From Ginglymostoma cirratum (Eukaryota): a DNA stretch of 64,000 bases. The translations under genes were made by a program, and so were the position numbers. The notes under the pieces are model-generated. The model was not told the origin of the DNA, did no database searches, and was given only the letters and a program-made list of their open reading frames with translations. The stretch lies in the NCBI GenBank assembly GCA_024137785.1, contig JAHRHZ010000041.1, positions 5,531,052-5,595,051 of the forward strand, written 5' to 3'. This document shows, piece by piece, positions 8,876 to 46,533 of the stretch (positions are counted from its first letter, which is position 1; the number at the start of each line of letters is the position of its first letter).

Positions 8876-9509
8876 TAATATGTACCTTTAGCTGCCTGGT
8901 CCCCAAGCCTTGGATGTCCTTCCCTGCACCTTTCCACTACTCTGTCCTCCTTTAAGAAGCTTAACAGCCACTACTTTGACCAAACCTTTAGTCACCTCTC
9001 CTAAAATCTCCCATCATTCTATTAGTGCCAATACCTATGGCTGAATAAATTCCTCCAATGTTTTACTAGGGGTGTTTTACTTGGGGTTATCTAAATGCAA
9101 ACTGTCACTTCTAAATGCAACAAAGGATGCCAAATGTTTTCCCTGAAGTATATAGGCCTCCAGTACTTCAATGGGCAAGGCCATCTGGTGTCAGATTTAG
9201 GAATACCACAGTTTCTAACCTGTGTGATGGTGGGCTTGGACAGGACGGTAAAAGCAAGCAGAATGACTGCAGGGTTCACTGCTCTCGCGGGACACTGAAT
9301 CTGTGGAATGGACTGGCTGAGAAATGTCTTTGGAAAATAAATGGATCATCCTTGTTTGAGGGTTACAGAGGTATTAATAGATCAGATATGTTCTGGAAGG
9401 AAGTTATAAAGGGTTAGAGAGATTTTAATAGACCAAATTATCTTCAGGAAGGGATTGAATGACTGATATGAACCTGTATGAACTGTGGAATGAGTTGTGA
9501 TCTATTGTT

Positions 9510-14546: not shown

Positions 14547-15390
14547 TACTCCTGTTTTTGATTTGTACATTTGTAGAACCAGTTCTGAGGACATTAATCT
14601 GTCCTTTCTACTCCCTCTGCCTCTCTCTCTCTCTCTCTCTCCTTCAGTATATATGTGGACCTGGTCTGTGTTTCTAGCGTCTTCATGTTTTAAGTTCAGG
14701 TCCCCATTGACAGCATATGTTCTTTTTAAAACCTCCCATCCACCGAGGTGCAGATTCAATCCATCAACACAACACTCCTCCACTGTGGAGCGAACATTAG
14801 TGGAAGCAAAACAAGCAATGAGAGCTGGGAATTCCTTTGAAGACCAGCTAGCTGCAGTACTGTGTGTACACTGTGGTGAGGAAGATCTGCGAAGATGTGT
14901 GACACGGAGGACACATATCTGATGAGGAGGACATTTTGACACACCCAGTAACCAGCGTGGAGAGAGCAAGCATTCTGTTTCAATCTGAAAGCTGGCTCTA
15001 TGTGTGGCTGTCTTTTTAAACAATGTACAATCTGATACATATCAGTAACAACAGAATCTGCCCTGACAAATTTAATGTAGAACAGGCTGTGCAAAAATAC
15101 ATTATTAATGTGTAAACAGATAATGGGAAGCTGGTAAGGAATTCCAACCTAGGGTCCTTAATTCACACATTCAATATTGGATCATACCTTTTCTTTTATT
15201 CTATATTTTCGCTATTAAACGAACGACAAATATGTTAACCTTGTCGTTTTGGCAGGTTCTTGCTGGTTCAGTCTCAACCCTGTCTCTCTTTCTCTCACTC
15301 TCTCTCTCTTCCCCCTCCATCTCTGTCTCCTTCCCCCTCTCTCTCCCTAAACGAAAAATCCAGGGCTGAATAAATACAATGACAACTTAC

Positions 15391-15469
15391 CCGAGCCACT
15401 AGACAGCAGCATGAGCCCGAGGAAGCAGGAATGTAGGGGAGAAAGAGCCGGGCTAACGTGAAGTTTCAT
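15391..15469 (-). CDS. First coding exon (signal peptide, phase-1 intron) of a gene continuing leftward; probably sodium channel beta-2 subunit (SCN2B) by synteny
   Basis: ATG AAA CTT...= MKLHVSPALSPLHSCFLGLMLLSSGS, then G|GTAAGT, in a GC/CpG-rich region. In human, SCN2B is the next same-strand gene downstream of JAML and starts with a signal-peptide exon. No downstream exon was recognised in 1-15390. Confidence 0.6.
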
Positions 15470-19899: not shown

Positions 19900-20028
19900 T
19901 CAAAACTTCCAATGATCGTCCTGAAAATCCGAAGGCAAAACCGCATGGGAATGTTCTCCAGGTATGGGAGCATTGGCTACAATAGGTTTAGGAAGATCAT
20001 TGGGTGTCTTTGATTGTAAGATTGAACG
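19900..20028 (-). CDS. JAML: JAML-like terminal coding exon
   Basis: Polypyrimidine tract TTCTGTCTCCAG|CGT TCA ATC... phase 0; RSILQSKTPND...HWKF*. Supported by splice signal and phase, not by recognised homology. Confidence 0.6.
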   Translation of the reverse strand, partial: RSILQSKTPNDLPKPIVANAPIPGEHSHAVLPSDFQDDHWKF

Positions 20029-23000
20029 CTGGAGACAGAACAGAGACAAGAAAATGTTAGGTACAAAATATGCAGCAATCATTTACAAATAGCAGGTTAA
20101 TTTTCTGAGCATTCCCAAATGGTTCACCCAGGAACTGTCTCCACAAACCCATAAGACCATAAGACACGGGAGCAAAAATTAGGCCATTCGGCCCATCAAG
20201 TCTGCTCCACCATTCAGTCATGGCTGATAAGTATCTCAGCCCATTTTTCTCCCACCTCCTCCCCATAACCTTAGATAGGTTCCTGATTGTTAGGGGTATC
20301 AACCTCTGTCTTAAATGTACTCAATGACCTGACCTCCACAGTCTTCTGTGGCAGTAAATTCCATAGGTTCATCATTCTCTGGCTGAAGAAGTTTCTCCTT
20401 AAAGCCATTCTAAAAGGTCTTCCTCTTAATTCTAAGGCTGTGCCCTTGGGTCACAAACTCCAAAAATATACAACAAATGAATTTTGAATTGCTAGAGATG
20501 CCAATGGTTTTAGATTGGGAATCCCAGATCTGAGGCAGTGTACTATTATGTGAGAGGATACAGAGATGAGCAACAATAATAGATCCTTTTGTTTGGAATC
20601 TATGCTTTATCAATGATGGTGAATTTTGAGGTAAGAAAGGAAAAAAAAAACTCCCATATAATGTTTGAGATTGTGCGTAAGACCAACAATACTGAACTGG
20701 ACAAATTGTTCACTCTGTCGCATGACTCAAATCTGAACATACTCAAGTGAGAAGTGAGGGACTGATGAATAAGCAGAAAAATCTTTTAGATGTGAATTAA
20801 ATTGAAGCACATGTTGCCAGACTAGCCAAATGGATCAGAAAGCAATCAACCATTCGACTTCAGTTGTACTTCTCAAGAAAGAAAGGTGTTGGGGAATTTG
20901 GTGAGGTGATGGTAACATGGAGGGAGTGATTTGGTGAGTAGATGTGATTGAGAGGAATGGTGGGAATATAAATAAAAATGAGAGATATGGTAGGAAAATG
21001 AATAAGTGGGATTGAGAGATACAGTGGAAAGGTGAGTGGGTGGGATCAAGGGATACAGTAGGAAGGTCAGTGGGTGGGATTGAGGGATACAGTGGGAAGG
21101 TCAGTGAGTGCGATTGAGAGACACAGTGGGAAGGTCAGTGAGTGAGATTGAGGGATACAGTGGGAAGGTTGAGTGGGTGGGATTGAGGGATACTGTAGGA
21201 AGGTGAGTGTATGGGATTGAGGGATACAGTGGAAAATTGAGTGGGTGGAATGGAGAGACACGTTGGGTAGGTTGAATGGATGGGATTGAGGGATACAGCG
21301 GGAAGGTAAGTGGGTGGGATTGAGAGATACAGCGGGAAGGTAAGTGGGTGGGATTGAGAGATACAGTGGGAAGGTAAGTGGGTGGGATTGAGGGATACAG
21401 TGGGGTGGTGAGTGGGTGGGATTGAGATCACTGAGAGAGTGATGAGTCTGTTGGCCACGTTCTGTTACTGGAGCATCTTTACACAATTTGTGTACCCAAT
21501 GGTTGATGGTACTCAAAAATAAATACGACTTGGATAAGCACACGAGATGCCATAAAATACTTGAAGCTATCGACCATTACACCAAGGGTTGGATTAGACT
21601 GAATAGTTTCTCATTGACTGATGCAGAAAAAGATGGTCCAAATGACTTCCTCCTAAGCTGTTAAACCTATTGAGTTTCTCTGAATCACCACTGATTGTGG
21701 ATATCAGTTAGTCACGCAGGCAATGTCATGTCCTGAATTCATTCTCCCAACAATATTACCATTGTTACATAAGTTTCCTCTTCACCGTTCTTTGAGTCCT
21801 TATTTTTCATTTCCTCCTTGGCTTTATTTTGTCTCTCGGTCTGGACTGGGTTTCGGTTGGTCACAGTGACGTAGCGTGCTATTTCCTGATGGTTAGTGAA
21901 CATATTTGTTTAATCAGCTGGAACTGCATCTTCACGTCACCTTCACTTTCTAATTTAAGTCCATCCCCCACTCCTGCAAAACCCTCTTGTGTCTCTGCAA
22001 TGCTGCACGGGTCAAGGTAGTGTGTGGGTGATAACTGCCTGGGCCATGTCCCACAATTGATCTGCTGATTCCAGCTGTGGCAGAATTAGAAAATTGACTC
22101 TCTCACTGTTGGAGAAACATTCTCTCCCATTCCTGCTCCAATATGACCGCATTGAATAGCAGAGCAGGCTCAAAGGGCTGAATGGCCTACTCCTGCTCCT
22201 ATTTTCTATGTTTGTTCACAGGGTTAGCCCTGGGACAGAAGTTGAATGAAGCCTGGAGATATAAAAGTGATGTTTAGCATGTCCCACAATATGCCTATCA
22301 TAATAGGCGTATCATGTTGGGTCGTGTTACTGCGCTGTTAATCTGGATTAGTGCACTAGAGAACTGAGTTTAAAACCCATCATAGCAAATAATTCAAGTA
22401 ACTTAATATATTTGGAATAAATAGATATTTGGCAGTAATAATGACCGTGAAGCTACCAGATTGTGGCAAAGAGCTATCTGGTTCACTTAACCCTCGAAAG
22501 TGGATATTGCCATCGTGACTCAATCTGGCCTCCATGTGACTCCAGACTCACAGTAATGTGGTTGACTCTCAGCTGCCCTCTGAAACAGCCATTCTGTTGA
22601 TCAAACTGCTACAGAGAAGAAGCAATGTGGGTGAAACTACACCATATAGTTCAGGAAGGCAGCTGGCCACCATCTTGATGGACAATAAGCATTGACATCG
22701 CCAATCATGAATGGATTAAAAGTGAAAGCTCTCTCCATCCCTGTCCACTAAAAGCCAAGCCATTTCCTGGGAGAAGCAAGAAGCCAGATTTAAAAACCCA
22801 AGCTGCACTGGGGAGGAATATTTGGGAGACTCTGTTTCCACCCTCCTACACCATGAATTCCTTGAAATACATGTACTTTGTAAGAGGTTATGTCAGCCTG
22901 AGCCACACAGATTCGGTTCCTACTTGAAAGGATTCAGAAAATGGGTGCCAACCCATGAGCCACCGTCTTGATCTAGAGGCTCACTGTACCCTGGTAAAAG

Positions 23001-26000
23001 GACCAGCCCCTAACGTCTAACTTCAGCCCAGCCTCACACAACAAAAAAATTGTGAGTCCTGGTTCTCCCTAATCCACGTAATTGGATCGAACTGTCAACT
23101 CGGACGCAATCCATTCCCCCCGCCCCATTACCGTATACAACCTCAGTCAGATCATTAGGTAAGGGAATCAAAGGAAAAGGCAGGAAAGTGGAGTTGAGGA
23201 TTATCAGATCAGCCATGATCTCGTCGAATGGCTGAGTAGACTCAATGGGCTGAATGGCCTATTTCAGCTCTTGCAACTTCTGATCAATCATCCTTGTATC
23301 TATGCTGGGAAAGTAAGACTTCAGTAAATGCTGCACTCACTGTGAAGAATCCCTGGATGAACTAAGGTGGCTCAGTGGTTAGCCATGCTGCTTCACAGTG
23401 CCAGGGACCTGGGTTTGATTCCACCCTCAGGTGAGAGTATATGTGGAGTTTGCACATTCTCCCTGTGTCTGTGTGGGTTTCCTCTAGGTGTTCTGGTTCC
23501 TTCCCACAGTCCGAAGATGTGCATGTTAGGTGAATTGCCATAGAAAATGCAGGGTTTAGGGGGTTAGGTAGGAGAGTAGGTCTGGGTGGGATACTCTTCA
23601 GGGGGTTGGTGTACATTCAATGGGATGAATGGCCTGCTTCCACACTGGAGGGATTCTATGATCACTGAATCTGTGTTGACTGTAGTTAACATGTTTCAGT
23701 GACTGAGAAAATAAGTGGATATTCAATATTAAAAGTTTACCTAAAATCTGTACATTAAAGTGCCCCTTACCTCTGAATCTTCAAGCCCTCCTGGATATCT
23801 TCTGCTTGTTGATGCAGAGAATAGGGGAGAAAGTTAAAGATTATTCATTGTGTGGAAAGGAAGGTGACAGCTCAACTCATTTAAATTCTTGCTCCTTGAT
23901 ATACGTACCTTTGACTTCTTATTGACCATTTCTTCCATGTGCTTCCAAGGATAAGTGTGACAAAGAAAATGATAACACCTGCTGCTGTCGTATATATGAT
24001 TATATTCTTTGGAACTGCTTCCACTAACATGGATGGTCTTAAGCTCCGTGTACGTTTGGTGTCTGAAGGAAATAGAAATGTTCAGATAAATTTAAATGTA
24101 AAATCTCTGCCTCGTTGCCCAAAGAGGCATTGATATCACGAAGTTAACAAGTCAGTTGTGTTTCAGGAGAATCTCCCCAAAAACTGTCAATTGATTCAAG
24201 CCCTGATCTTGGATTTAAATGAGGAAGCTAGACAAACACATCAGTGTAGTCCAGTCAGAGGCGTGGATGAGATGCTAAACCTCACTGTTTTATTGAATCT
24301 GCCAATGTCTTACTGAAAGCAACTCAACATTTCCATGACCAAGATCGAATCATCAACCAACACGGGATTAATCGGTTGTGATAAATTGGTCATTCTTTGT
24401 GGTATTTTGTGGGCTAAATGTTGGCCATTTTTATCCACATTACATCAGTGACTCTGCTGAAAATTATCCATCACTTGGTGAGCATTTTGGGATGTATAAA
24501 CATAGAACATAGAACATTACAGCGCAGTACAGGCCCTTCGGCCCTCGATGTTGCGCCGACCTGTGAAACCAATCTGAAGCCCATCTAACCTACACTATTC
24601 CATTATCATCCATATGTTTATCCAACGCCCATTTAAATGCCCTTAAAGTTAGCGAGTCTACAACTGTTGCAGGCAGGGCATTCCATGCCCTTACTACTCT
24701 CTGAGTAAAGAATCTACCTCTGACAACTGTCCTATATCTATCACCCCTCAATTTAAAGCTATGTCCCCTTGTGCTAGCCGTCACCATCTGAGGAAAAAGG
24801 CTTTCACTGTCCACCCTATCTAATCCTCTGATCATCGTGTATGTCTCTATTAAGTCACCTCTTAGCCTTCTTCTCTCTAATGAAAACAGCCTCAAGTCCC
24901 TCAGCCTTTCCTCATAAGACCTTCTCTCCATACCAGGCAACATCCTGGTAAATCTCCTCTGCACCCTTTCCAATGCTTCCACATCCTTCCTATAATGCGG
25001 CCACCAGAACTGTACGCAATACTCCAAGTGCGGCCGCACCAGAGTTTTGTACAGCTGCAACATGACCTCACGGCTCCGAAACTCAATCCCTCTACCGATA
25101 AAAGCTAACACACCGTACGCCTTCTTAACAACCCTATCAACCTGGGTGGCAACTTTCAGGGATCTATGCACATGGACACAGAGATCTCTCTGCTCGTCCA
25201 CACTACCAAGAATCTTACCATTAGCCCAGTACTCTGTATTCCTGTTACTCCTTCCAAAGTGAATCACCTCACACTTTTCCGCATTAAACTCCATATGCCA
25301 CCTCTCAGCCCAGCTCTGCAGCTTATCTATGTCCCTCTGTAACCTGCAACATTCTTCCGCACTATCCACAACTCCACCGACCTTAGTGTCATCCACAAAT
25401 TTACTAACCCATCCTTCTATGTCCTCATCCAGGTCATTTATAAAAATGACAAACAGCAGCGGCCCCAAAACAGATCCTTGCAGTACACTAGTAACTGAAC
25501 TCCAGGATGAACATTTCCCATCAACCACCACCCTCTGTCTTCTTACAGCTTGGCAATTCCTGACCCAAAGGACAAACAACAGTAGCACAAGTGCAGGTTC
25601 TTTCTTTTTTTCATTTAATTTTCTGAATATTTAGCAGTCCCGCCAATACAGATTTAGTGATTGCTCCCTCTTTATGGAAAGTTCCATCCATTAGCTGTGT
25701 GTGTCAGAATATGGGGAACGCTCTGCTTCATTTTGCATCCATTAACTTAATTCATGAGGCTATTGTGAACAGGAGGCCACATAGACAGGTTTTACATAAT
25801 TGCCCACCCACATTGTACTATCTCACAACATCGAGATAAACTTTACATAAAACACATATGACGTAAACCCTTTCAATTAATTCCCAGAGGATTGAATTTC
25901 AAATGATCAAACTCATTCCCATTCACAATCAATACACACAATTCCAACTGACAAAATCCCTTCACATTCAATTCCAAGTGTCCACATCTTATCCACTCTC

Positions 26001-29000
26001 TCACCATTCCCAATTTATGGAAGTATATCACCTTAGTTCTTAGACCATAAGATATTGGAGCAGATGTAGGCCATTCAGCCCATCAAGTTATCTCCGCATT
26101 CAATGAGATCATGGCTGATCTGATAATCCTCAACTCCACTTTTCTGCATTTTCCCCTTAACCCTTAATTCCCATACTGATTTAAAATTGATCTATCCCAG
26201 CCTTATATGTATTTAGTAGCACAACCTGTACAACCATAGATTCACATTCCGCTGAGAAAGAAATCCTTTTATCTCACTCTTAAATGGATGATCCCTTGCT
26301 CTGACATTATGCCCTTTGTTCCTAGATTCACCCACAATGTAAACAGCCTCTCTGCATCTTACCCATCTGGTTCACTAATGCCCTTTAGGGAAGGAAACTG
26401 CCATCCTTACCTGGTCTGGCCTACATGTGACTCCAGACCCACAGCAATGTGGTTGACTCTGAACTGCCCTCTGGGCAATTAGGGATGGGCAATAAATGCT
26501 GCCTAGCCAGTGACACACTCATCCCGTGAACGAATAAAGAAAAACTTTCTGCGCTGTGCTTCTTTGTTGGAAAGGTAATTCAGATAGATGTTGTGGATAT
26601 TTTTAAAACCAGTCTTTCTTTTCCACCCTCTCCCCTTTTTATAGAATCAAGTGCAGCGGGAGATAAAATATGCTTTGAAGTCAATGCCATGGATGAGCAT
26701 TCCAACAGTGGCGTTATTCTTTGCAGAGGTCCGAGGTTACAGCAAATTGTACGACTATATCGAGGATTCCCATTATGGTAAATGTTGTTAACAAAACAGG
26801 GAAATGGGAATTCCACATGGGGAAGTGGATTTTGGCCAACATTTCACTTGATTCCCTCACACTGGGCAGCGAGCTGAACCTTGCATTGTTCTTGAAACCT
26901 GAGACCAGGTGACATGGAGCAAGAGTAAGTCATTTTAACCCCTCACATCTGCTCTGTCTTTGTAGTCCATGGCCATAAAAAAACCCTGTCAAGCCCCTTA
27001 AAAATCCTATATTTCAATAAAGTCTCCCTTCATTTTTCTAAACTCCAATGAGTACAAGCCCAACCAACCCAATCTCTCCTCAAAAGAAAATCTCTCCATG
27101 CCCAGAATCAGCCAAGTGAACCTTATCTGGACTGCCTCCAATGCCAGTATATCTTTCCTTAGATAAGGGGCCCAAAATTGTTACAGTATTCCAGAAAACA
27201 AGGTGTGGAGCTGGATGAACACAGCAGGCCAAGCAGCATCATAGGAGCAGGAAAGCAACTATGTTCTGACTTACCTTGGCACAACACTGTTAGATCAATT
27301 CTGCTTCTATAGATGCTGCTGGATGACCTCGGGATCCGCATATCACAAGTGAAGGAACCTCTGTCGCTGCATTCCACTTCAGATATGAGAATGGAGCCAT
27401 TGCCTTGTCCAATGTCACCCATCCACTGCAGTCTCGGGGAGAATACACTGTCCTGCACAATCACACTGAGGTTTTGGTAGTGAAAGAAAATCTGTGTCGG
27501 AATCAACAAAGAAGTTAACTAAAGATTAAGCATAGCATTTGATAGAGCAAAACACCCTTTACATACTCCCCGTCAAACACTCCCAGGCCAGGGACAGTAT
27601 AGGGTTAGATACAGAATAAAGCTGCCTCTACACTGTCCCCATCAAACACTCCCAGGCCAGGTACAGTAAGAGGTTTGTTCAGAGTAGAGCTTTCTCTACA
27701 CAGTCCTTATCAAACTCTCCCAGGGCAGGGATGGCACAAGGTAAGATACAGAGTAAAGCTCCTTCTGCACTGTCCCCATCAAACACCCCCAGGCCAGGCA
27801 CATCACTCAATGGATCTACAATTAAATTAATTGATCTCATTGAAACTAAATTGAAACTGAACTCTAAAGAAGTGCAGATTAGTGACAAGGTTCCAACACC
27901 AGTCACTTCACAATTTCCCCTCAGCTGGAGAGCAGCACAGTTCATTGTACAGTCCTTGGTTAACTGTTTTCTGATGCATTCAATGTGAAAACATCTCTAA
28001 CAAACATATTCCATATACTAACCAATCAACACTCTCTTGTTGGCCATTATTGATTGTTGTAGCCTTTGAGAATTGGTACTCTTGTGATTCTATCCTGATT
28101 TTAGTGCAAGACAAGAAACTTTGATAAAATGCAATACACAGCCCATTATCTTAATGACGTCAGGGATGGTTTCTATGGAAGTGGAACGATGTCTGCAAAA
28201 TGAGCTGAGAAATCAAACCTCACTTGCAGAAACCTGTTTCAATTACAGGATAAAATAAGTTAGGCCAAACAAGTTCACTAACTAAAGTGTGTCAATGATA
28301 GTGGGCTGAGGCAACATGAACTGACAGAGAAGGCTGTTATGGGTGGTATCACTGCATAGTCTCTGATTGATGGTAGTGGTCTTGTTACTCTTAGGATCAT
28401 AGAGTCCCTACACTCTGCCCATCAGGTCCACACTGACCCCCCCACAAAGAGCACCTCACCCAGACCCACCCCACCCCAGTAACCCTGCACCTCCCATAGC
28501 TAATCCACTTAACCTGTACAGTATAGGACAATTTAGCATGGCCAATCCACTTAATCTGCACATCTTTGGAATGTGGGAGGAAATCAGCACACCCAGCAGA
28601 ACCTCACACAGACACGGGGAGAATGGGCAAACTCCACACAGAGACAGTCACCTGAGGGTAGGATTGAACCTGGGTCCTTAGTACTGTGAGGCAGCAGTGC
28701 TAACCACTGAGCTACCATACCACCCACTTCTCTGGTCTTGCCTGGTCATCCAGCACATTACTATCGAGAAACAGCTGTGAGGAAGGGTCACCGGACCCGA
28801 AACGTTAACTCTGTTTTTTCCTTCACAGATGCTGCCAGACCTGCTGAGCTTTTCCAGCAACTTCTGTTTTTGTTCCTGATTTACAGCATCCACAGTTCTT
28901 TTGGTTTTAATTACTATCAGAAGTTGGTTAGCTCAGTTGGCTAGTTGGCTGGTTGGCTGGTTGGTGATGCAGAATGATACCAACAGCATGCGTTTGATTC

Positions 29001-32000
29001 CTGTATTGGCTGGGTTACCATGAAGGACTCTCCTCCACAATCTCTTCCCGTAGTCTGAGGTACACTGATCCTCATGTCAAACCACCACCAGCTGTGTGTC
29101 TCTCTAATGAAAGAGTGGGGCTACAGTGGCTTTACTTTCACTGTTAATTCAGTTATAGCTGTTCACAGTAAATCTGAAAGAGTGGAAACACTCTGTCTGT
29201 AACTTACTGAAACTATTGTGAACTCTGTGTTGCTGAAATGCTGTGATGTGACAGTGAATGAACATCGGTGTAGTCTTTTTGAGAGGGAACATAATTAGAG
29301 CAATCACCCAGTGATTTATGCTTGTTTAGAATGTGCTTTGGTGCACAGTTTCTGCAGATTCTGTGTAAAATTTCCCAGGGATTGCTGAAAGCTCTGGATG
29401 ACAACATCGCTGCCCTAAATGGTAACAGCTGTTGCCACATTTGATTGAAAGACAAGTTATAAACCATGTTGGTAAAATGCAGCCACTGAGATCGACAGAG
29501 AGCTCTGGAGCACATCACTCACCAAGACCTCCTCGGTATCACTGTCAGGGCTGTGCAACCATTCCAATTTGATGTTGTGCTGTTGAACATCAGTTTGGTA
29601 TTCGAGTTTGCAGTCCAAACGTAACTCCATTCCCTCCTCTACAACCAAGGATTTCGGGGTAGAGATACCAATCGCTAACGTGGAGCAGATACCTGAAGGA
29701 TAGAAACCAACACCCAATACCCATTGATGGGTAGAAGCCTCAGTACCTGGGCTGACAGGCAGTGGATTGATTCCCACTTTTGGTGACGTTACACTAGCTA
29801 TCCTTTAGGCTGTACATAAACTACACAGACACCTTTGAGTCAGAGAGACATACAGCACAGAAACAGGTCCTTTGGTCCAATTCATCCATCCTGACCAGAC
29901 ATCCTAATCTGAGCTGGTCCTTTTTACCAGCATTTGGCCTGTATTCATGTACCCATTCAGATACCTTTTAAATGTTATAATTGTACCCGCCTCCACACTT
30001 GCCCTGGCAGCTCGTTCCATACATACGCTAATCTCTGCATGAAAATGTTACACTTCAGGTCCTTTTTAAATCTTTCCCCTCTCACCTTAACCCTATTTGA
30101 GTAGATTCCAGACCATAAATCTCTCCTGGGTATCCGTTATTCTATGTATAAACCATAGAAACTCCACAATTAGATTCAAGGCTGGAAATCTCTCTTGGGT
30201 ACAAATCCCTGAACCCTGTGATTAGATTCCAGACTATCACTCTCTGCTGCATATCTGTCATTCAATGTATAAACCACACAACCTTCTTGATTAGATTTCA
30301 GTCTCTAACATGCTCCCGGGTATATACTGTCCCCAACGTAAACTGTCTGGACCCTGCAAATACATTCCAGCCTGTATGACACAAATTATAGTATCTGTTT
30401 CTGAGCACAAACCGTAACAGTTATTAGCCACGAATATATTCATTAGCATTAATTACAGCCAAGGAGGTGATAACTATGAAGCTCAGTAACCACATTTGCA
30501 CAATATATGACAAAGAGCAGTGGTCACGAATCTGCTCCCTGGAAACATGACTGCAGACATCCATTGGTCTGTAAATCAACCACTAATCACTGCCTTTAAC
30601 TTTTCTAACAAGTCTATGGTGTTGCCCTTTATCAAACAGCATTTCCAATGCCACCCCTCTCATCAATCCTTCGACTTATGTTGTCAAAGAATTCAGTCAA
30701 ACTCATGATTTACCTCGGCTGGTGTTTATTTATTATTTTAATAAATGAAAGCTAGTTGACGTTGTCCCTGCCAGCAATATTTATTTTAAAAAGATCCCGC
30801 AGACCTTCCTGCACAGAGTAAGAGAAGTTTGCATAAAAGAATCCAAGTTGCAAAACCTGAGCCAAAGCCACAAAGCTACCCGATTTACTATACCGTATGA
30901 GATGTGGAAACCCTGTCAAGGCAGAGCCCGTCTTTAGTACCACCGGCCAGAATAATCGAGCTTCATTTAGGGTTAAATTGCTTCACGATATTAAAACTAT
31001 CGCGAATTGAAGTCAGCTGGGTGCAAAAAGGGGAACTGTGGGTATGCATACGATTGCCAGGCAAGGTGGTGAACCTTCAGGCCTGGCTTCCTCTTTCCAT
31101 CAAAATTAATGCTCTCCTGTGCAGCAAAGCAACTGCGTCGGACATTTCAATGATGCTCCTTCAGTGTGAGTCTCAGCAAAGAGACAGCTGGGATCATATC
31201 TATCAGCGTCTGTACAGAACCTGGACAGATCGTACAAAGGATACGATTTGTGGAACTCAGCAAAGATCTTAAAAACCTTGCATCCAAGCCATGATATCTT
31301 TGTCTCATTAGAGTTTAGGAGAGAAAGCTGTCCCAGGAGAAGTGGAATGGGTTTGTAGTCTGTGCAGTTTACAAGAAGGAGGTGATGCCATTGAAGTATA
31401 AGTTTAGATGGGACTTTCCTGCCTAAAAGTAACAGGAAAGGTGGTGGATGGGCGATTACTGTGGTGAGTTGATGCCAACAAGCTACCTGCCCCTACCCTC
31501 CAATGTTTTGGGGGTAGTTTCATGGGCAACCTTTCTGACCCTGACCAATTGAGGCCTTTAAAGGGTTAATTAATGGCATCTTTAAGGGCCTCAAACTGCC
31601 CAATCAACTTTGTCTCAACAGGAGAGAAAAATGGCAATCTTCTCACTTGTTACAATGAGGTAGATCACCAGCTGCAGTTGGGGGTGGGGCGTGAGGGAGT
31701 GGGGAGGTGGTGGGAGGGGGTTGGGGGGTTGGGGGCGGGGGACAGGCAATCAAGACATAAATGAAGGTCAAAGGGTTACAGCTTAAAGCCATCAATGGTC
31801 CCAGTCCTTTGTGCTGCTGCTCGGCCAGACAGGCAGAGACTTAATTGGGCAAGACATCACTGGAGATGGTGGGGGTGGGGGGGATGGGTATCTCTCAATC
31901 CTAGAGGTACTCGCTCTCACAGTTGGTATTAAAAAATGGAAAGTTCTGGCCATAACATTCTTAGGGATAAGGCGGTTGCTATAGGGAGTTGCTGTGAGAC

Positions 32001-34237
32001 TGTCTTCCCATTAGCTGGAGAATCTAGTTGAGGGTAGGGCAAAGGCCATTTAGCCACTGAGCTGAGGAGAAATGCCTCAAGTCAAAAGGAATATGGATCC
32101 TTGGAATTCTCTATCGCAGAGAACCGTGGAGTCTATATTCAGGATCAGGATGAATAGAGTTCTGGGTACTGAGGCAACCAAAGAATATGAGGTTAGAGTT
32201 AGAAAGTGGAATTGAGATAAAAGATAAAATCTCATTGAATGGAGGAACAAGTTCAATGGGCTGAACGGCCAATTCCTGCTCCAATTTCTTATTGTCTTGT
32301 GTATGAGGTGACTCAGTAGAGGTGTTTAAAGTTATGAAAGGAAGAAACAGAGTAGACAGAAACAGAGGGTCTTTTTCTAACATAATTTCACTGGTGGAAA
32401 TTCCAGAGAATGGGAAGGAATGTCCAACATTGTTTGTTGACTTTAATGAAGAGTAAACTCAGGCATAGTCTAAAATCAGCATTGATCCCAATGCCTTTAA
32501 TTTCCCTATGGTGGGTCCTAATTACCCCCAGAGTGTTTCCAGTGATTGAGGGGTCTTGAATGAAAAGATATCAATGTGAGATTAAATGAAAGAGATTTAG
32601 AAAAAGACAGCAGGAAAATATCTCTCAATTGTTATTCGAGGCAGTTGTGACAGTGTAAATTTCACTAACAAAAATAACAATTGAAACGAAAACAGTGTTT
32701 ATATTTAAAAATACAAATACTGGAGGACTGGAGGATAGGGAGCTAATGTATAGGGAAATAGGACACAGAACAGTGGGTAACAACGTTACCTCAGTATGGC
32801 TACAAGTTGTGGGTTCAAGTCCCACTCACGATTTGAACACAAATGTTGTGGCTGACATTTCGGTGCAGTATGAGGGAGTGCCGCAATGTAGGAGGTGCTG
32901 TTTTTCAGATGATTTGTTAAAATGAGACCCCAATGGACCTGGAAGATTCCAAAGAAGAGTAGAGGTGCTCTTCTCAGTGTCATGGTCAATATTTATCCCT
33001 CAACCAACATCAATAAAAAGATTGTTATCGAATTGCTCAGAGATAGTAAGAACTGCCAATGCTGGAGTCAGAGATAACACAGTGTGGAGCTGGAAGAACA
33101 CAGCAGGCCAGGCAGCATCAGAGGAGCAGGAAAGCTGACATTTTGGGTCAAGACCCTTCTTCAGAAATGAGGAAGAATTCTGAAAAAGGGTCCCAACCCG
33201 AAACATCAGCTTCCTTGCTCCTCTGATGCAGCCTGACCTGCTGTGTTGCTCCAGCTCCACACTGTGTTATCAAATTGCTGTTTGTGGGAGATTGCTGTGT
33301 GTAAATTGACTTCAGTGTTTCCAATTTGACAACATCAGCTATGGTTAAAAATACTTCTTTGGTTGCAGAGCATCTGGGATGTTCTCAGGTCATGAAAACT
33401 GCCACAGAAATATAAGAGATAACAAGGTGCAGAGCTGGATGAACACAGCAGGCCAAGCAGCATGATAGGAGCAGGAAAGCTTGACGTTTTGGGCCTAGAC
33501 CCTTCATCAGAAATGGGGGAGGGGAAGAGGTTTCTGAAATAAATAGGGAGAGAGGCGGAGGCGGATCTTTTACCTCTGTGCCTCCTTTTGTCAATACTGA
33601 CCCTTCAAAACTGGGTCTTCCTGGATTTATGAGGTTCCATATCACACTTAGCTAGGTCTTCCCACCTTCCCATTCATCTCTGTCTTCAAAACCTAACGGT
33701 ACCCTCATCAAAAACAGAAATTTCCAGGGAAACTGAGTAGGTCTGGCACATCTGTGGAGAAAGAGACAGTTAATGTTTCAAGTTCAGAACCAGTTAACTG
33801 TACTTTCTCTCCACAGATACCACCAGACCTGTTGAATTCCTGTTTTTATTTCAGGTTTTCAAAATCCAAGGTGCTTTGTTTTAATTTAGTGCACTGGAAA
33901 TCCATCTCTGCTTGCAGCTATGAAAATGGCTCACCAATTCAGCCTAATCTGAGCTGCTGGTCCCACTGTTCAACTCATTAAGCCCATACTTATAAAGATT
34001 CTATGCAGCTGAATGGACCGATGATGACTGTTGGGTGGGGTTTGGTGTTTAGAGGTGGGTGAACCATATATCAAAACCTCCAAGAATGTAAAAGACCACA
34101 GTCAGCAATCCCAGCCCCAATTACAGCTGTGAATCAGAACCCTCTGCCTAATTCGGGCCATTTTTCCATCAGTGTTTCCAATAAACAAAGCACTTACCAC
34201 AGAATATGAGAGATGACAGGAGCAAGAGGAGATCCAT
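19900..34237 (-). CDS. JAML: Junctional adhesion molecule-like (JAML/AMICA1-like) type I Ig receptor, join(34237-34198,29692-29523,27491-27275,24062-23909,23801-23771,21885-21760,20028-19900), 867 nt, 288 aa
   Basis: Spliced product: MDLLLLLSSLIFCG|ICSTLAIGISTPKSLVVEEGMELRLDCKLEY...KLEWLHSPDSDTEEVL|IFFHYQNLSV...PRLQWMGDIGQGNGSILISEVECSDRGSFTCDMR...DLTVLCQ|DTKRTRSLRPSMLVEAVPKNIIIYTTAAGVIIFFVTLILGSTWKKWSIRSQR|RYPGGLEDSE|EIARYVTV...EEETYVTM|RSILQ...HWKF*. All junctions are GT-AG with consistent phases. The V domain resembles JAML (YYSNLSV, RVHLMGD..NDGS), and YVTM parallels the JAML YMTM motif. Confidence 0.82.
20147..20460 (-). mobile_element. CR1 3' end in the last JAML-like intron
   Basis: (CCATAAGA)n tail and GGCCATTCGGCCCATCAAGTCTGCTCCACCATTCA. 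Confidence 0.8.
21008..21428 (+). repeat. 34-bp G-rich minisatellite (GGGATTGAGGGATACAGTGGGAAGGTGAGTGGGT), ~12 copies
   Basis: Direct tandem periodicity. Confidence 0.9.
21760..21885 (-). CDS. JAML: JAML-like cytoplasmic exon with YVTV and YVTM motifs
   Basis: Branch point CACTAAC then CATCAG|GAA ATA...; ends TAT GTA ACA ATG|GTAATA. Confidence 0.8.
23365..23662 (+). mobile_element. HE1/V-SINE
   Basis: Head, V domain and GATTCTATGA tail. Confidence 0.88.
23771..23801 (-). CDS. JAML: JAML-like 31-nt cytoplasmic exon
   Basis: Phase 2-to-0 exon needed to join the TM exon to the next exon; AAGCAG|A AGA TAT...GAG|GTAAGG. Confidence 0.7.
23909..24062 (-). CDS. JAML: JAML-like transmembrane exon
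   Basis: TTCCTTCAG|AC ACC...; IIIYTTAAGVIIFFVTLILG followed by WKKW; donor AG|GTACGT. Confidence 0.86.
24500..25550 (-). mobile_element. Young 5'-truncated CR1 LINE with an uninterrupted ORF2 C-terminus
   Basis: ORF 24590-25588: [58 protein letters not shown]; (CATAGAA)n tail; CpGs retained. Confidence 0.95.
26361..26545 (+). mobile_element. 5'-truncated SINE directly preceding the captured SC5D segment
   Basis: Same family as 975-1338; tail CATCCCGTGAACGAATAAAGAAAAA. Confidence 0.85.
26546..26973 (+). pseudogene. SC5D: Inverted duplicate of SC5D 44122-44549 (intron + 133-nt exon at 26645-26777 + intron) inside a JAML-like intron
   Basis: 428 bp, 4 substitutions by manual comparison and none in the exon. 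AG/GT splice sites are intact on the + strand. Confidence 0.95.
27275..27491 (-). CDS. JAML: JAML-like Ig V domain, second half
   Basis: ACAG|ATT TTC...; RLQWMGD..NGSILI..DRGSFTC (DxGxY/FxC motif); donor G|GTAAGT. Confidence 0.9.
27560..27800 (-). repeat. Inverted array of the ~67-bp minisatellite
   Basis: CTGTCCCCATCAAACACTCCCAGG...GATACAGAGTAAAGCT units. Confidence 0.8.
28395..28720 (-). mobile_element. HE1/V-SINE
   Basis: Antisense head and V domain. Confidence 0.85.
28925..29140 (+). mobile_element. tRNA-derived SINE of a further family; related copies at 38335-38500(-) and 57000-57190(-)
   Basis: TAGCTCAGTTGG head and AAACCACCACCAG...CTCTAATGA.AGAG core. Confidence 0.6.
29523..29692 (-). 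CDS. JAML: JAML-like Ig V domain, first half
   Basis: TTCAG|GT ATC...; B-strand Cys (LRLDC) and C-strand Trp (KLEW); donor TTG|GTGAGT. Confidence 0.88.
29838..30095 (-). mobile_element. CR1 3' end
   Basis: Same subfamily as 2069-2510. Confidence 0.75.
30100..30380 (+). repeat. Degenerate ~50-70-bp tandem repeat (ATTAGATTCCAG...TATAAACC)
   Basis: TAGATTCCAG-like words recur about five times. Confidence 0.6.
32780..33415 (+). mobile_element. DeuSINE interrupted by a PLE hairpin (33038-33271)
   Basis: tRNA head GGGTTCAAGTCCCACTC, GAGGGAGTGCCGCA, AATATTTATCCCTCAACCAACATC. Confidence 0.75.
33038..33271 (-). mobile_element. PLE-derived hairpin mini-element
   Basis: Inverted arms; TGTTATC(G/A)AATTGCT duplicated at 33023 and 33265. 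Confidence 0.85.
34198..34237 (-). CDS. JAML: JAML-like signal-peptide exon (exon starts at 34252)
   Basis: CCATAG|GTGAGGAACAGTGAA ATG GAT CTC CTC TTG CTC CTG...TGT G|GTAAGT; hydrophobic MDLLLLLSSLIFC; phase 1 matches the next exon. Confidence 0.8.
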
Positions 34238-35138
34238 TTCACTGTTCCTCACCTATGGAGAGAAAGTTAATTCAGTGAAATAACAACTTGCATTTTCAAA
34301 GCTCCTTCGACATAATAAACCATCCCTCGGTAATCTGCAGGGACGCTATCAAATAAAAATTGACCGTCAAACAAAATTTAACTCACATTTGACATAAATA
34401 AATATCGTGACAGCCAACCAGAACCTTAGTCATAGAGGTATGCTTTAAATAGTGCCTGACAAGAGGAAGTGAAGAGGGAATTTCAGAGTTCGGGTATGGC
34501 TGCCAATAGTGAAACAAAGAAAATAAAAGCTGCGCAAGACGCCAGAATTGGAGGAACACAGAGATTTTAAACGATTTGGGGGCTGGAGAAGTTTAAACAG
34601 ATAAGGAGGAGGTGAGGCCGTAGAGGAATTTGAAATCAAAGATGAGAACCTTGAAGTGGTAGCACTGCCAGGCTCAAAATAGGTCTGTGAGCAAAGGTAG
34701 CGATGTGATGGTGGAGCAGGACTTGGAACAAGCAGAGAACTAGGCAGCAGAAATTCAAATGAACAGTTTATACAGGGTGGAAAAGACAGCAAAAGTATAA
34801 CGACCAGAGATAAAGTGCTCAAATGGTGATTGTGGCTAATCATCAGTCCAATGTAGAATGATGTCCATTGACAGATTAGTTCTTTTTTCAGGCTGAACAT
34901 TTTGGTCCCTATGGAGATGTAGGTTACTGGGCTTAGAGTTTCCTTGAACTCATCCAGACCAGGTTCCTTTCTGAATCCCTGTGAGTGCTGCTAGACAGGG
35001 AATCATTGCAGGGTCAAGGGGTGGAGAGCATTGACTTGCAATATCTCCCAAAGTCAAATATCTTCTGACACATCATTGCAGGCTGAAATGTGAAAAATAA
35101 TTGTTAACGAGGCTCTGGGGAAGAGACAACTATAAAGT

Positions 35139-40296: not shown

Positions 40297-42143
40297 TGTT
40301 TTACTTGGTCATATCATGGACAGAAACTAATGATCAAACACATAATAAAATTATTTCACAAACTTAAGTAACCAGAAAATGTTATGGGGATATAGGAAGA
40401 GGAAGTGGCTGTTCAGTTCCTCCTTGTCCATTCTGGTAATAAATTATGTCAAAACTGATCTACATCTTCAATTCATCTATGTATCTTGGCTCTGCAATCC
40501 TTAATTACAAAAATACAAAAACAAAATCTATCAAATTCTGCCTTGAAATTTTCAATGGATCCCCAGAGGAGACAGCTGAAGAATTCCATGATCCTTTGCA
40601 TGAAGGCATTCTCCGGATAATACCTTAAATGGTTGGACGTTTAAAAGGTAACATTCCTTCTCAAACATTAAAAGTATGAAACTAAGTTGATGCTGGCAAT
40701 ATCTTGGGTTATCATTGCTGTGGCCTAGAATTAGTTCAAAACCAATTTATAGGTATGCGTCTGATCTTTTGGGTTTCTCATGAATAGATGATGTGGTTAG
40801 AAACTCTGCATAAAGACCTCAATCATGTGATCTTGCTCAGAATCTCTATTTACAACCTAGAGTTTGCCCAGAAGCATTTAGAGAAATGTCCTGGGCAAAC
40901 TTCTAGGCCAGCAATTTTCCCAGCTGAAGCAGGACCGTCCAGTCCAAGAACCCAAGCAGTCAGCAGCAGTGAGAACTGATGCTGAGCCCATATCCCTTTT
41001 CTTAGCAGTAGCTGCTGCATTCCATGGCTTACAAAACTTGAGGAATAGAGCGGCAGGTAAATGGGTAATGGCTTAGGGTAGGTCATGGGCTCTTGGTTTT
41101 GTGAAGGTTTTTGGGATGGATTAAGGTTAAGAAAAAACAAGGGAGCTGGGAAGGGAATGTCAGGTCAGGTCAGATCAGGTGGATTTCAGATGCCTGTGAA
41201 AGTCAGGGAGGGGGTCACTAGTGTCCTTCCCCTCCATGGCCAACTGCCTCTACTGGTACAGCTTGTCTAGACTGAGCTGTCCCTACACCTTGGGCTCCTC
41301 AAGGTGTGAATGCCAAACAAATGACACTGAGGCCCAGTTGTTTTTTTCAAAACCCATGTGCACCAAGTTAAGTAGACTCAAACTCAAATACAGCATCCTT
41401 ACAGGTCACACTGGCTCAGAACCCACTACTAAGAGGCATAAAATTTGATGGAAATAAGTAACCCACTCATTAAAGCATTTTTGCATTTTACTGTATATTC
41501 CATTGAATGATCCAAGAAATACAAGACAATGTGAAGTAGGCAGTGAACAATAAACAGGGTGATTTAGGGTATGAATCCAAGCTCCCATAATGGTTCACAA
41601 TTGTATATATGAAATGAAGTATCATCTATACGGGAATCTTTGAGATTGAAAAACAATGATAGGCAAAGATTTTACTTCACAAAGGCTGTACAACACAGAA
41701 CTGTTTTAAAATTGCTCAGAATTGTTAAAATAAAATGAGATCTTTTAGCAATCAAGTCTATTCTTACAATAATATCATACATAATTACAACTAGATGATA
41801 ACCAAGAATCACCCAGACCCTAGATAACACCATTCACAGCATTAACAAAGCTTTCAGGTCATTAATAGATTGAGGCCCTAAACAAGCATTGTACTGTAAA
41901 TTCTTTATAAAAGTACTTCCAGTCTCTGAACAGCTAGTAAAATTAGAATTCCCCTCATTCACAAGGCAACAGGTTGTCTGTTACTGCTACCCATTTCCGA
42001 TACATTTTATTCGTAGTAATAAAATAGGGCCAATTAGAATACTGAGCAATGCCTGGATTATATGACATTCATAGTATTGCTCTTGGCAGGGATGACAGTG
42101 CTTCACTGGAGCAAAGCAAGGGCAAGTAGGGAATGGGAGTAGC

Positions 42144-42590
42144 TCATTCCTCTTTGCTGACATTTTCAGTGGCTGCCTGGCCATTGGAAGGAGAGCTACA
42201 CAGCTTTCCCTCGGCTGTCAACTTTCTCAGGTAGTCATGTGGTCCTTTGCCTTCGAAGGCAGATGGGCACTTGTAGGAGCCTCCAATTCTGTCCCAGAGC
42301 GTAAAATATTGTCCATAATTGTAGTCAAAGTACAGGTGGTGGTCAGTGTGATGGGCTGCACCGTTGATGACCTCCTCAAGGATCTTAGGCACTCTGTAAT
42401 TCCCATCGTGAATGGACACTGTCCAGATGTTGACGAAGATGTAAAGACCCAGGTAGACCAGCTTGTGCAGCGGGAACAGGAATGGATAGATATGATATGG
42501 GATACTCTGCAGGAAGCCATCAATAGGATGAAAAGCGTGACTTGCGAATGGGGTTGCAATCTTCCAGGTATGGTGGGGCTTGTGTAAGCG
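42144..42590 (-). CDS. SC5D: SC5D last coding exon (447 nt incl. TGA)
   Basis: TGCAG|CGC TTA CAC AAG CCC CAC CAT = RLHKPHH...; continues in the ORF-track frame [10 protein letters not shown]...HHTDHH...SKEE*. An AATAAA lies on the minus strand at 42006-42011. Confidence 0.96.
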
Positions 42591-45500
42591 CTGCAGACAA
42601 GAGAGGAATTACATATCAGCATATTAGCGATCACTTGAAACTAAAAATAAAGGCACACAGTTCTAAAAAACAAAACCAAAGGATTTTAAATATCAACCAT
42701 ATTATGATAACACCAAGAAACATGGGACTTGAACATGCATCATCTGGCCCAGAAGCATGGACATTTGACTGATGCTATAAGATTTCTTCAGGAAACAATT
42801 CTATTTACTGAAGATGCTCTTCAGTCATGATCTGGCCCTCATGATGTCAGATGTCCATCAGCATCCAGAACCAGGGCTAGATGCAATAATAAGAAACATC
42901 AGCATTTTAAAATAAATTTATGAAGTGGAAATAAGGTTAGTCGTAGATTTCTGACACATTCCTTTCAGGTAATGCAATCAACATTAACTTTCAAAGGGGA
43001 AACTGAATAATATTAGAGGAGAAATTTAGAGGAAAGACCGGAGTGGGTCTAATGAAGAGCTGCTTCAGTGGGGTGCAAGGTCTCCTTCTGACCTATCCAA
43101 TATCGTCATCAATGCTAGCATGTCTGATTAGCCCCCTTTCGTTGAAGCAGGTATCTAATCGTGACAAATAAAATCTAAACCCCATTTTCAAATCTCTGAA
43201 TAATCTGTGTATGAAAGCCGTACTGCCTTGTAACTCTAACACTTACCTTATAGAGGAGCCTGTGGTGAAGAAACCGATGGATCCAGTAAATACACATGTC
43301 CGTGAAGAACAGAAAGGAGACCATACTGAAGATTACTCCAAACCAACCTGATTAAACAGGAAGACAAAATCATAGGGTGGTAGTTTCCTCAGTATACAAT
43401 CACAGACATTAGCCACCTATTCCAGTTCATCATACACACATGGCTCTAAGCATCACAGTCACAAGCCATAACCTTGAGGATTTTGGGGGAAAAAGTGCCG
43501 GGGGGGGGGGGGGGGCCCCCCTTGTAGAACTCACACCACATGGCACAAACAAAGCAAAGCAGGAGTTAATACCTAAGGAGTACACTTACTGCTCTTTCCC
43601 TGCCCTGCCGTTATTTGAAAAGTGGCTTTTTCCTTGGCCCACTTTACTCAGACAGAATTTCCAGAAATAATAGCTACATTTATACGGCACCTTTAAAATA
43701 GTGGAACATCCCAAGGTCCTTCACATGCAGGTTATCGTACAAACCTTATATTAGGCCACACATGGATACAGGGCAGGTGATCCAATGTTGGGAGGGAGAG
43801 AAGAAAAGAAAGGAAAATGGAAAAAAGGAAAATGGAAAAAAGGAAAATGGAAAAAAGGAAAATGGAAAAAAGGAAAATGGAAAAAAGGAAANNNNNNNNN
43901 NAAATGGAAAAAAGGAAAATGGAAAAAAGGAAAATGGAAAAAAGGAAAGAAAAGCTGAAACTGTTTGGAGGGGGAATGCTTCATCCTAGGCAACCAATTG
44001 AAACTAGAACTCAGGAACCTACAATAGTGGAACCAATGGCAGGAACAGGGAATGGGATTACAACTTGTTCCATACAACTAAGATATTTCCAAAGCAACAT
44101 GTTCATCAGATTCTCAAATCAGCCATGGACTACAAAGACAGAGCAGATGGGAGGGGTTAAAATGACTTACTCTTGCTCCATGTCACCTGGTCTCAGGTTT
44201 CAAGAACAATGCAAGGTTCAGCTCGCTGCCCAGTGTGAGGGAATCAAGTGAAATATTGGCCAAAATCCACTTCCCCATGTGGAGTTCCCATTTCCCTGTT
44301 TTGTTAACAACATTTACCATAATGGGAATCCTCGATATAGTCGTACAATTTGCTGTAACCTCGGACCTCTGCAAAGAATAACGCCACTGTTGGAATGCTC
44401 ATCCATGGCATTGACTTCAAAGCATATTTTATCTCCCGCTGCACTTGATTCTATAAAAAGGGGAGGGGGTGGAAAAGAAAGACTGGTTTTAAAAATATCC
44501 ACAACATCTATCTGAATTACCTTTCCAACAAAGAAGCACAGCGCAGAAATGTTTTCTTTATTCATTCATGGGATGAGGGCATCGTTGGCCAGGCAGCATT
44601 TATTGCCCATCCCTAATTGCCCAGAGGTCAGTAAGGATGACAGTTTCCTTCCCTAAAGGACACTAGTGAACCAGGTGGGTTTTCCCGACAAATCGACAAT
44701 GGATTCATGGTCATCATTAAATTCTTAATTGCAGATATTTATTGAATTCAAATTCCACCATCTACCATGGCAGGATTCGAACCTGGGTCCCCCAAAGTTA
44801 TGTGAGTCTCTGGATTAAGAGTCCAGCGATAATAAGGTCATTTGGTGCAGTATACCTGAGCCAGTTTCTAACAGGTTATAGCTACTGGGCTGTCAAAACC
44901 ACACCTCAGTCATTAAGACCTCTCATTCTAAGACAGCAGCCAGAGGCAAGTTGTTCTGCAGAGGTAGCACAGAGAAATAAAGAATAGAAAGTGAAATAAT
45001 AAGTAATTATGAAATATGAACATAAAATAGTGACTTATAAGCCAAAAAAAAATTAGCATTTCAAAATTTAAAATAAAATCCCATTTGCTGGTCTGAGCAA
45101 GCGTTGTCAAAACAATTTTAAAAACACCCAAGGATTCTATTTTTCCATCAAGCACTGACTCAGGAACTCACACCATTTCCTCCACATGAATGATAGAAAT
45201 ACATGATGCAGAGTATAATATAGTGGTTGCATATACAACACAACAGATATTCCATCTGATGAGTCAACGCAATAGGACATTTCACAAGAATGTCAAGAAG
45301 CCTTTAATTCCATTGCTTTTAAAATGGCCTTGCTGGGACCTTGCTGTGTACTTACACAGGAAAGATTTGCAGGATTGTCAGCATAAAAAAAAAGGTGGTG
45401 TGGTGGTCGAGACTAATTGTTTGTTTATAGGGTTTTTAAAAGAGCTAGCCAATTAAATGAACTGAGAGACGCAGAGACGTCAGGGATATAGCACATACCG

Positions 45501-45708
45501 GCAAATACTGCGGATGTTTCTTCAGTGTGTGATCAAAAATGAAGTAATAGCTAAACATTCCGAAGAGGAGGTAGATAGCAGCGGCTCCCAAATTTGTTAC
45601 AACTAGGAGGCTGATTATCTGGCGTACAGCTTCATCCTCTGGCCAGGAACTGGGGTACACGTATGGTGTGAAGAAGTAGTAGTCTGTGTAATGCAGTACG
45701 ATATCCAT
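42144..45708 (-). CDS. SC5D: Lathosterol oxidase / sterol-C5-desaturase, complete spliced CDS join(45708-45499,44450-44318,43347-43247,42590-42144), 891 nt, 296 aa
   Basis: Translation [26 protein letters not shown]...KHPQYLP|[45 protein letters not shown]|[33 protein letters not shown]|[22 protein letters not shown]...[26 protein letters not shown] closely matches vertebrate SC5D. Three His boxes (HRFLH, HKPHH, HHTDHH). All introns are GT-AG with consistent phases 0,1,0. Confidence 0.97.
43247..43347 (-). CDS. SC5D: SC5D third coding exon (101 nt)
   Basis: AATCAG|GT TGG TTT... = [34 protein letters not shown]; donor AAG|GTAAGT. Confidence 0.96.
43806..43948 (+). repeat. 15-bp purine-rich tandem repeat (GGAAAATGGAAAAAA) spanning an assembly gap (N 43892-43901)
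   Basis: Perfect repeats on both sides of a 10-N gap; true length unknown. Confidence 0.9.
44318..44450 (-). CDS. SC5D: SC5D second coding exon (133 nt)
   Basis: TTTTTATAG|AATCAAGTG... = NQVQREIKY...EDSHYG; donor G|GTAAAT. This frame is not shown in the ORF track. Confidence 0.96.
44550..44833 (-). mobile_element. SINE of the same family in the SC5D intron, directly upstream of the duplicated segment
   Basis: B box GGTTCGAATCC; internal ~54-bp deletion relative to 26361-26545. Confidence 0.85.
45499..45708 (-). CDS. SC5D: SC5D first coding exon (210 nt coding; exon starts at 45716)
   Basis: ACAG|GTTATGCC-ATG start; [19 protein letters not shown]...HPQYLP; donor CCG|GTATGT at 45498. Confidence 0.96.
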
Positions 45709-46533
45709 GGCATAACCTGTAAACCAAAAGAGACGTTAGTGATTCATCATGTATGAAAACTTAATTCCCAGTGAACACACAGCACTCTTTCCAGGTCTTC
45801 ATTCACAGTGACCCTGACTGGACTGACCTATACTGTGAGATGCTTAACTTAAAAACATTCAAAGAAATTCCCTTGTCTGGTATTGTTCAGCAGCAATGCT
45901 TAGATTATTCCCTTTTACAATAATATTAAATAAGTGGAAGAGAATTTCAAAGTAGTCTGTTTAGTGATTAAGCACAAGAATTTAGACTGTCATTTCAACG
46001 TGAGAGGAGCTACATAAACAGTTATCACCAAAGTGCAAAAGCTTTTAGGGTGTCCTGAAATCACTAAAGACACTTTATAAATGCAAGTCTTTCCTTGAAA
46101 AAGTTAAGCACAGCATTTCTATTACCAGATCAGTGATGGGACTGCCATATTTTTAGTGCAAAATAGTCTCCAACGAAAAAGCATGATGCTTCTCTTTTAC
46201 ATTTGCCTTTACCCAAACTTACCATTAACACCAAACCTGTCGCTCACCGTTTGGATTTTGATCATCCACTGCAAATATTCTAAAGGGCCTCCAATAACAC
46301 CACCGTACATTTCTATAGCAACTTCCATGGTGGAAAACATCAAGATGCTTTGTGGCAGCCATTATCTAATTTTATGGGACTTTATAAAAGGAGAACAGAG
46401 AGGTGGAAAGATTTAGGGATCTTAAGTTCAAAGTGGCTGAATAAGGTCAAGGGCATAAATCTGAAGAATTTAGGAACAGATTTAAAGGAGGGTGAGGCCT
46501 CAAGGATCGGAAACAAAAGAAGATTTTAAAATA

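Follow-up and report, generated by a model that had tools for sequence, protein, structure and literature searches.

A one-domain JAML-like gene beside SCN2B in the shark Ginglymostoma cirratum, most likely an ancestral form of JAML

The DNA analysed here (the window) is a stretch of 64,000 nucleotides (nt) from the shark Ginglymostoma cirratum (assembly GCA_024137785.1, contig JAHRHZ010000041.1, positions 5,531,052 to 5,595,051 of the forward strand), and its minus strand carries a seven-exon gene for a receptor with one immunoglobulin (Ig) V domain that resembles JAML (Table 1). The internal splice sites are AG/GT with phases 1,0,1,2,0,0, and the joined frame of 867 nt encodes 288 amino acids (aa) and a stop. 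An initial annotation, made from the letters of the sequence, had described seven phase-compatible exons encoding a 288-aa type I protein, a V domain split across two exons and a tail containing EEETYVTM. All three points are borne out: splice sites and phases fit, a phase-0 intron separates exons 2 and 3, and exon 6 ends in the motif, with its tyrosine codon at 21771. The product shares 96.5% identity over 288 aa with the whale shark RefSeq model P0001 (XP_048471604.1) and 58-82% with other shark models. The gene is real and conserved, and it most likely encodes an ancestral form of JAML.

One V domain is present in every orthologous RefSeq model, from 11 species of shark and 2 of ray. Two of the sharks, Carcharodon (XP_041030383.1) and Scyliorhinus canicula (XP_038635103.1), have the gene, with the same architecture, under the name 'junctional adhesion molecule-like'; elsewhere it is called P0-like, MPZL3-like or uncharacterised. 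A likely upstream mini-exon, used with an acceptor at 34252, would provide an optional 8-aa N-terminal extension and so match the N-terminus of the 296-aa whale shark form (P0001); it is the only candidate between 34250 and 46000. Intron 6 contains an imperfect tandem repeat at 20979-21427.

Table 1. Features of the JAML-like locus, in window coordinates (TM, transmembrane)
Feature	Position	Strand	Remark
Exon 1	34198..34237	-	ATG and first part of signal peptide; phase 1
Exon 2	29523..29692	-	End of signal peptide, V strands A-C, Cys41, Trp58; phase 0
Exon 3	27275..27491	-	V strands C'-G, Cys119, extra Cys111 and Cys141, sequons N77 and N101; phase 1
Exon 4	23909..24062	-	Stalk and TM helix (aa 163-181); phase 2
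Exon 5	23771..23801	-	Juxtamembrane linker
Exon 6	21760..21885	-	In-frame 126-nt signalling exon; YVTV (Tyr209) and EEETYVTM (Tyr243, codons 21771-21760)
Exon 7	19900..20028	-	C-terminal tail and TGA stop
Likely upstream mini-exon, coding end	34387..34395	-	ATG at 34395, three codons, GT donor
Inverted copy of part of SC5D	26463..26973	+	511 bp, one exon and flanks, in intron 3, outside the JAML mRNA model; 97% identical to 44632-44122, exon part 0 mismatches
SCN2B first coding exon	15383..15469	-	Synteny marker, 4.4 kb downstream of the JAML-like stop codon; tblastn with P0112

The cytoplasmic tail of 107 aa carries both of its tyrosine motifs in the single exon 6. A tail profile was built from 14 bony-vertebrate JAML tails, sharks excluded. 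Against it the window tail scored 14.9 bits and other chondrichthyan tails 11.3-24.7, compared with 9.8 for the best of 500 shuffles, 3.6 for the highest-scoring non-JAML tail in a set of 122 real tails and -1.6 for isoforms lacking exon 6. Among 10,000 tail shuffles, a bare YxxM arose in 5.4% and an acidic-Y[VIM]TM motif in 0.01%. The shark tail shows the feature that characterises the JAML group, two tyrosines with acidic-Y[VIM]TM as the second motif; YVTM is kept from sharks to mammals while the remaining tail diverges, and YVTV is also conserved. Lungfish JAML (P0082) has two YITM motifs.

Expression was assessed from sequencing runs of which X1 and X2 were taken as RNA by guess, their tissues not being given; four runs were compared with exons 3-5, and no RNA run on record is listed for exon 3. 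Contigs of X1 cover exons 3-5, with 0 unique intron bins. The start of one low-depth X2 contig (depth 2.3) coincides exactly with the 3' edge of exon 3, and the exon 4 bin has the depth of 1.64 that is expected from the other 92 letters of this contig, which points to direct splicing of exon 3 to exon 4, the joint itself not being displayed. In the raw run X11 the depth was about 0.5 over exon 3 and 0 over exons 4-5, and X12 gave none, repeats having swamped read placement. It is from RefSeq models that the YVTM exon is taken to be included: exon 6 is left out of isoform models P0011 and P0019 (whale shark, basking shark) and doubled in P0009 and P0022 (Mustelus and Heptranchias). Skipping it would yield a non-signalling form, and the gene models suggest that exon dosage sets signal strength. 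A tandem acceptor at exon 5 adds one serine in some isoform models (P0001 versus P0010).

The initial annotation had also reported no second Ig exon pair in 24063-27274, and the search of the whole window agrees: a JAML V-domain profile run against 1668 stop-free window segments matched exons 2 and 3 (E 3e-27 and 3e-14), the next best segment reaching 0.24, and no second pair was detectable among these segments. Intron 3 contains an open reading frame at 24593-25630, which we take to be of CR1 type, and the inverted SC5D copy, which its 97% identity to the source marks as a recent duplicate.

The order of genes on the contig (C41) is a TMPRSS-type gene (+), SCN4B (-), SCN2B (-) and then the JAML-like gene (-). 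The TMPRSS-type gene has LDLa and trypsin exons that do not separate TMPRSS4 from other TMPRSS genes, and the SCN2B V exon matches PDB SCN2B with E 3e-20. The human order, as given in PMC2956734, is TMPRSS4, SCN4B, SCN2B, AMICA1 (JAML), MPZL3, MPZL2, CD3E, CD3D, CD3G, UBE4A. The shark gene therefore lies where human JAML does, directly upstream of SCN2B, with SCN4B and a TMPRSS gene beyond. The strands of the human cluster genes are assumed here. On the upstream side, where human has MPZL3, stands a multi-exon gene at about 42096-45735 (-) with FA_hydroxylase matches, which we take from its sequence likeness to be SC5D, along with a carotenoid oxygenase gene (+) with RPE65-family matches, presumably BCO2, an 11q23 marker. 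A UBE4-type gene, presumably UBE4A, lies on the same contig 0.65 Mb away. A genome search for CD3 by its immunoreceptor tyrosine-based activation motif returned a single weak match, which lies on a different contig. Pieces resembling exons at window 60313-60747 (+) and at L022:2647-2751 and 9127-9282 (+) belong to one more gene and have no Pfam match; we presume a likeness to fish glucuronokinase-nucleotidyltransferase.

The V domain is predicted with high confidence over about residues 21-140. The best PDB sequence match of the protein is mouse JAML (82.7 bits over two domains), and the C-C' region aligns with the first V domain (D1) of mouse JAML. After the F-strand cysteine, the FG loop reads CDMRIPR in sharks, against NPP or NLP in the aligned P0, MPZL and SCN2B rows. 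Cys111 and Cys141 are kept in 10 of 10 chondrichthyan rows, have no counterpart in other JAML rows and probably form an extra disulfide. A V-domain tree of 63 P0-family rows recovered a JAML clade at 100/99, and approximately unbiased (AU) tests rejected shark+P0 (p 0.007) and shark+MPZL1 (p 0.002), so that an identity as P0 or MPZL1 was discarded. The trees were built without partial rows and without one half domain (L1_f_D2). Classical JAM identity (JAM-A/B/C) was likewise rejected, the shark protein having one V domain, no C2 domain and a 107-aa tail, with 0 of its 29 PDB matches in that family; classical JAMs, as described in PMC12237671, combine a V with a C2 domain and end in a short tail that carries a PDZ-binding motif.

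Several observations weigh against reading the gene as JAML. The matching part of the tail is short. On the MPZL3/MPZL2 side the cluster is broken up in this assembly: the human 11q23 arrangement, with MPZL3 and MPZL2 directly upstream of JAML, is absent, SC5D is the upstream neighbour, and both genes lie 5.4 Mb away as separate loci near the start of the contig beside a POU-domain gene (C41:98304-126577; MPZL3-like at 98 kb, MPZL2-like at 122-126 kb, the JAML-like gene being at 5.55-5.57 Mb). The per-domain score is 50.6 bits for mouse JAML D1 versus 48.9 for P0, and V identity is 28-31% to D1 versus 28% to P0. Of 10 chondrichthyan rows, 6 score higher with an amniote-only JAML profile (7 rows) than with the MPZL1 profile. 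The fold search did not separate JAML from P0: for the predicted fold, P0, MPZL1 and SCN2B come ahead of JAML (Foldseek rank 16), and a VIA comparison, whose 50 rows do not include JAML, gave P0 a Z of 21.0 with a root-mean-square deviation of 2.0 over 121 aligned positions. With the addition of 12 unrelated V domains to the tree, the JAML label needed 4 changes and formed one clade in 0% of bootstraps, and most outgroup row names were assigned by similarity. The V domain by itself is accordingly weak evidence for JAML identity. On its grouping with JAML rather than with P0 or MPZL proteins the trees point both ways: shark+P0 and shark+MPZL1 are rejected and the clade reaches 100/99 among P0-family rows, but the clade dissolves in the presence of the unrelated rows, where a single JAML clade is not rejected (p 0.256).

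These points would fit a paralogue of the P0/MPZL/SCN-beta family specific to chondrichthyans, which gained its YxxM tail independently and whose likeness to JAML reflects long-branch attraction and a short motif; the loss of the clade among unrelated V controls, the nearer fold of P0 and the P0-like or MPZL3-like RefSeq names in most sharks all lean that way. Such a paralogue would nevertheless have to occupy the JAML position beside SCN2B, carry a two-tyrosine tail that matches bony-vertebrate JAML above all shuffles and all non-JAML tails, and lack the NPP motif of P0, MPZL and SCN2B rows, in the face of the rejected shark+P0 and shark+MPZL1 trees; no other JAML candidate was found among 7 genome matches. 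We consider it unlikely. JAML orthology is highly probable because of gene order and the tail and, more weakly, the V-domain tree.

Compared with mammalian JAML (AMICA1; mouse PDB 3mj6, 3mj7), the shark gene shares the SCN2B neighbour, a P0-type V domain without NPP and two tail tyrosine motifs of which the second is YxTM, and it differs in having a single V domain where the mammalian protein has two, a V identity of about 30%, the extra Cys111/Cys141, a first motif YVTV instead of one like YSSI, and an MPZL3 gene that is no longer adjacent. With P0, MPZL1-3 and SCN2B-SCN4B it shares the single V domain, the closest predicted fold and a V domain encoded over two exons, as in SCN2B, SCN4B and the MPZL2-like gene of this genome; it differs from them in the FG loop without NPP and in the YxxM tail, which those families lack (best 3.6 bits).

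The number of V domains was compared across a library search that gave 329 matches at E<=0.001, of which the best 150 were listed and 20 looked up by name. Among these 20 of the best 150, one-domain proteins named JAML occur in chicken and other birds, turtle, crocodilians, lungfish, platypus and echidna, and a coelacanth row named JAML is partial, without a tail, and has one domain. Unnamed one-domain proteins with the same two-tyrosine tail, assigned here to JAML, were found in bowfin, paddlefish and salmonids. The one-domain JAML of chicken (XP_040546240.1), turtle, crocodile, lungfish, platypus (XP_007655660.3) and echidna matches the shark protein in signal peptide, single V domain, transmembrane segment and Y[VIM]TM tail; it differs only in sequence divergence, and the database names are automatic annotation. 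Two JAML-type V domains appeared, among the matches listed, only in placental rows (Canis, Smutsia, Marmota, Spermophilus, Galemys and mouse 3mj6) and in unnamed rows grouping there. Two tandem V domains are absent from chicken, platypus and lungfish JAML as they are from the shark gene, and thus define the placental form and not the gene. Where the initial annotation treated the single domain as a peculiarity of sharks, it went too far, one domain being the usual condition once the placental rows seen are set aside. The named rows included no marsupial, amphibian, squamate, chimaera or lamprey JAML. Two-domain crocodile- or bird-like models (P0032, P0033, P0034, P0126 and P0176) combine an NPP-type and a JAML domain; they were treated as fused neighbour genes and left out of the trees. 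A duplication of this kind has also occurred independently in the same family: MPZL1 of two frogs (Ascaphus and Rhinophrynus; P0027, P0030, P0175) carries its V domain twice in tandem.

In the 63-row tree, D1 and the second V domain (D2) of JAML group together at 100/96 and with the monotremes at 99/90; in a 58-row mixture-model tree, with 17 near-duplicate rows dropped, the values are 100/93 and 97/88. Two trees with an old D1/D2 split were rejected (p 0.023 and 0.033; AU, LG+G4). D1 and D2 within one species are 47-62% identical, and a profile of 24 one-domain rows scored 140 bits against mouse D1 and 89 against D2. Since D1 and D2 form a group with monotremes as sister, the old splits are rejected and D1 fits the one-domain profile better, we infer that the second V domain of placental JAML arose when both V exons were duplicated in tandem, later than the monotreme split, and that D1 has kept the older sequence. 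A therian and a placental date both fit, no marsupial rows being among those named.

The initial annotation had left open an ancestral pre-duplication JAML and a lineage-specific domain loss. The first is supported, with one-domain forms in lungfish, sauropsids and monotremes; the second was rejected. Under loss, an ancestral two-domain JAML would have shed one domain in sharks, possibly in the rearrangement that placed the SC5D fragment in intron 3, and it is true that the inverted copy occupies the place expected for a second pair of V exons and that upstream gene order is broken. Sharks, ray-finned fish, lungfish, sauropsids and monotremes would then each have had to lose a domain separately, the two trees with an old duplication are rejected, and the SC5D copy is too similar to its source to be other than recent, yet one domain is common to all 13 of 13 chondrichthyan species seen. 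We judge loss very improbable; given orthology, the one-domain state is, with strong confidence, ancestral.

In the mouse, CXADR is a ligand of JAML, whose YMxM motif, similar to that of CD28, conveys the signal through PI3K (PMC8404475). The shark protein, taken as a whole, is probably an ancestral one-domain JAML, predicted to serve leukocytes in adhesion and costimulation and to recruit PI3K by way of phospho-YVTM. By analogy with mammalian work, ligand binding by the V domain would cluster the receptor. YxxM is the p85-binding consensus. Because YVTM fits it and has been retained between sharks and mammals, phosphorylation of Tyr243 upon ligand binding and recruitment of p85 through its SH2 domain are likely, by analogy with the mammalian receptor. 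The V-domain ligand is less sure, since the domain is only about 30% identical to D1; that it would be CXADR has slightly less than an even chance, again by analogy. A CXADR-like first V exon is present on contig C61 (L052:1441-1653, -), with 12 of 12 PDB matches to CAR, and could belong to CXADR or a paralogue.

A JAML orthologue that instead mediates P0-like homophilic adhesion or has some ligand different from CXADR, whose recognition would have evolved later in bony vertebrates or mammals, is a tenable alternative that we hold to be somewhat doubtful. The predicted V shape is closest to P0 and MPZL1, identity to mammalian D1 is low, the extra cysteine pair is confined to chondrichthyan rows, and human JAML makes cis dimers according to PMC2600739; set against this, the C-C' region aligns with mouse D1 and the genome holds the CXADR-like exon, which could be a paralogue. 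The PI3K reading of the tail would be unchanged by it.

Like CD28, ICOS and CD28X of the CD28 family, the shark protein combines one V domain with a YxxM tail. That family is marked by a CDR3 proline motif and CD28-type loci; the shark gene lies in the SCN2B cluster and its V lineage appears to be different, and the likeness is probably one of design and not of membership. No CD28-family chain was found among the 29 PDB matches of the shark protein, which was not directly compared with CD28 sequences. For the YxxM costimulation via JAML that the initial annotation proposed in cartilaginous fish, the YVTM of the JAML-like tail is the candidate motif; it would not be the first YxxM receptor there, CD28X with EYEDM having been reported in sharks and rays (PMC11599192).

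A 2025 review describes JAML only as a two-domain protein of the JAM family (PMC12237671), and in PMC7916592 JAML is scored by BLAST alone. A literature search showed no paper on the one-domain form, its function or its evolution, most subscription journals lying outside that search. The finding would re-date the two-domain JAML of mouse and human immunology to a late duplication, making the mammalian protein the derived form, and would place JAML with the P0/SCN-beta genes and not with the JAM family. The JAML crystal structure reportedly shows that D1 binds CXADR. PMC2600739 names the membrane-proximal domain as the CXADR-binding one, and the one-domain JAML of chicken, platypus and shark offers a natural test of which domain binds. 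The surprise is modest, the gene being already auto-annotated as JAML in some sharks. More tentatively, JAML may be a costimulator as old as jawed vertebrates, derived from the P0/SCN-beta cluster, with a CD28-like plan of one V domain and YxxM, in which shark JAML would bind CXADR, skipping or doubling of exon 6 would tune the signal, and the two-domain form would be a recent therian or placental duplication. For sharks, the gene adds a candidate costimulator of T cells.

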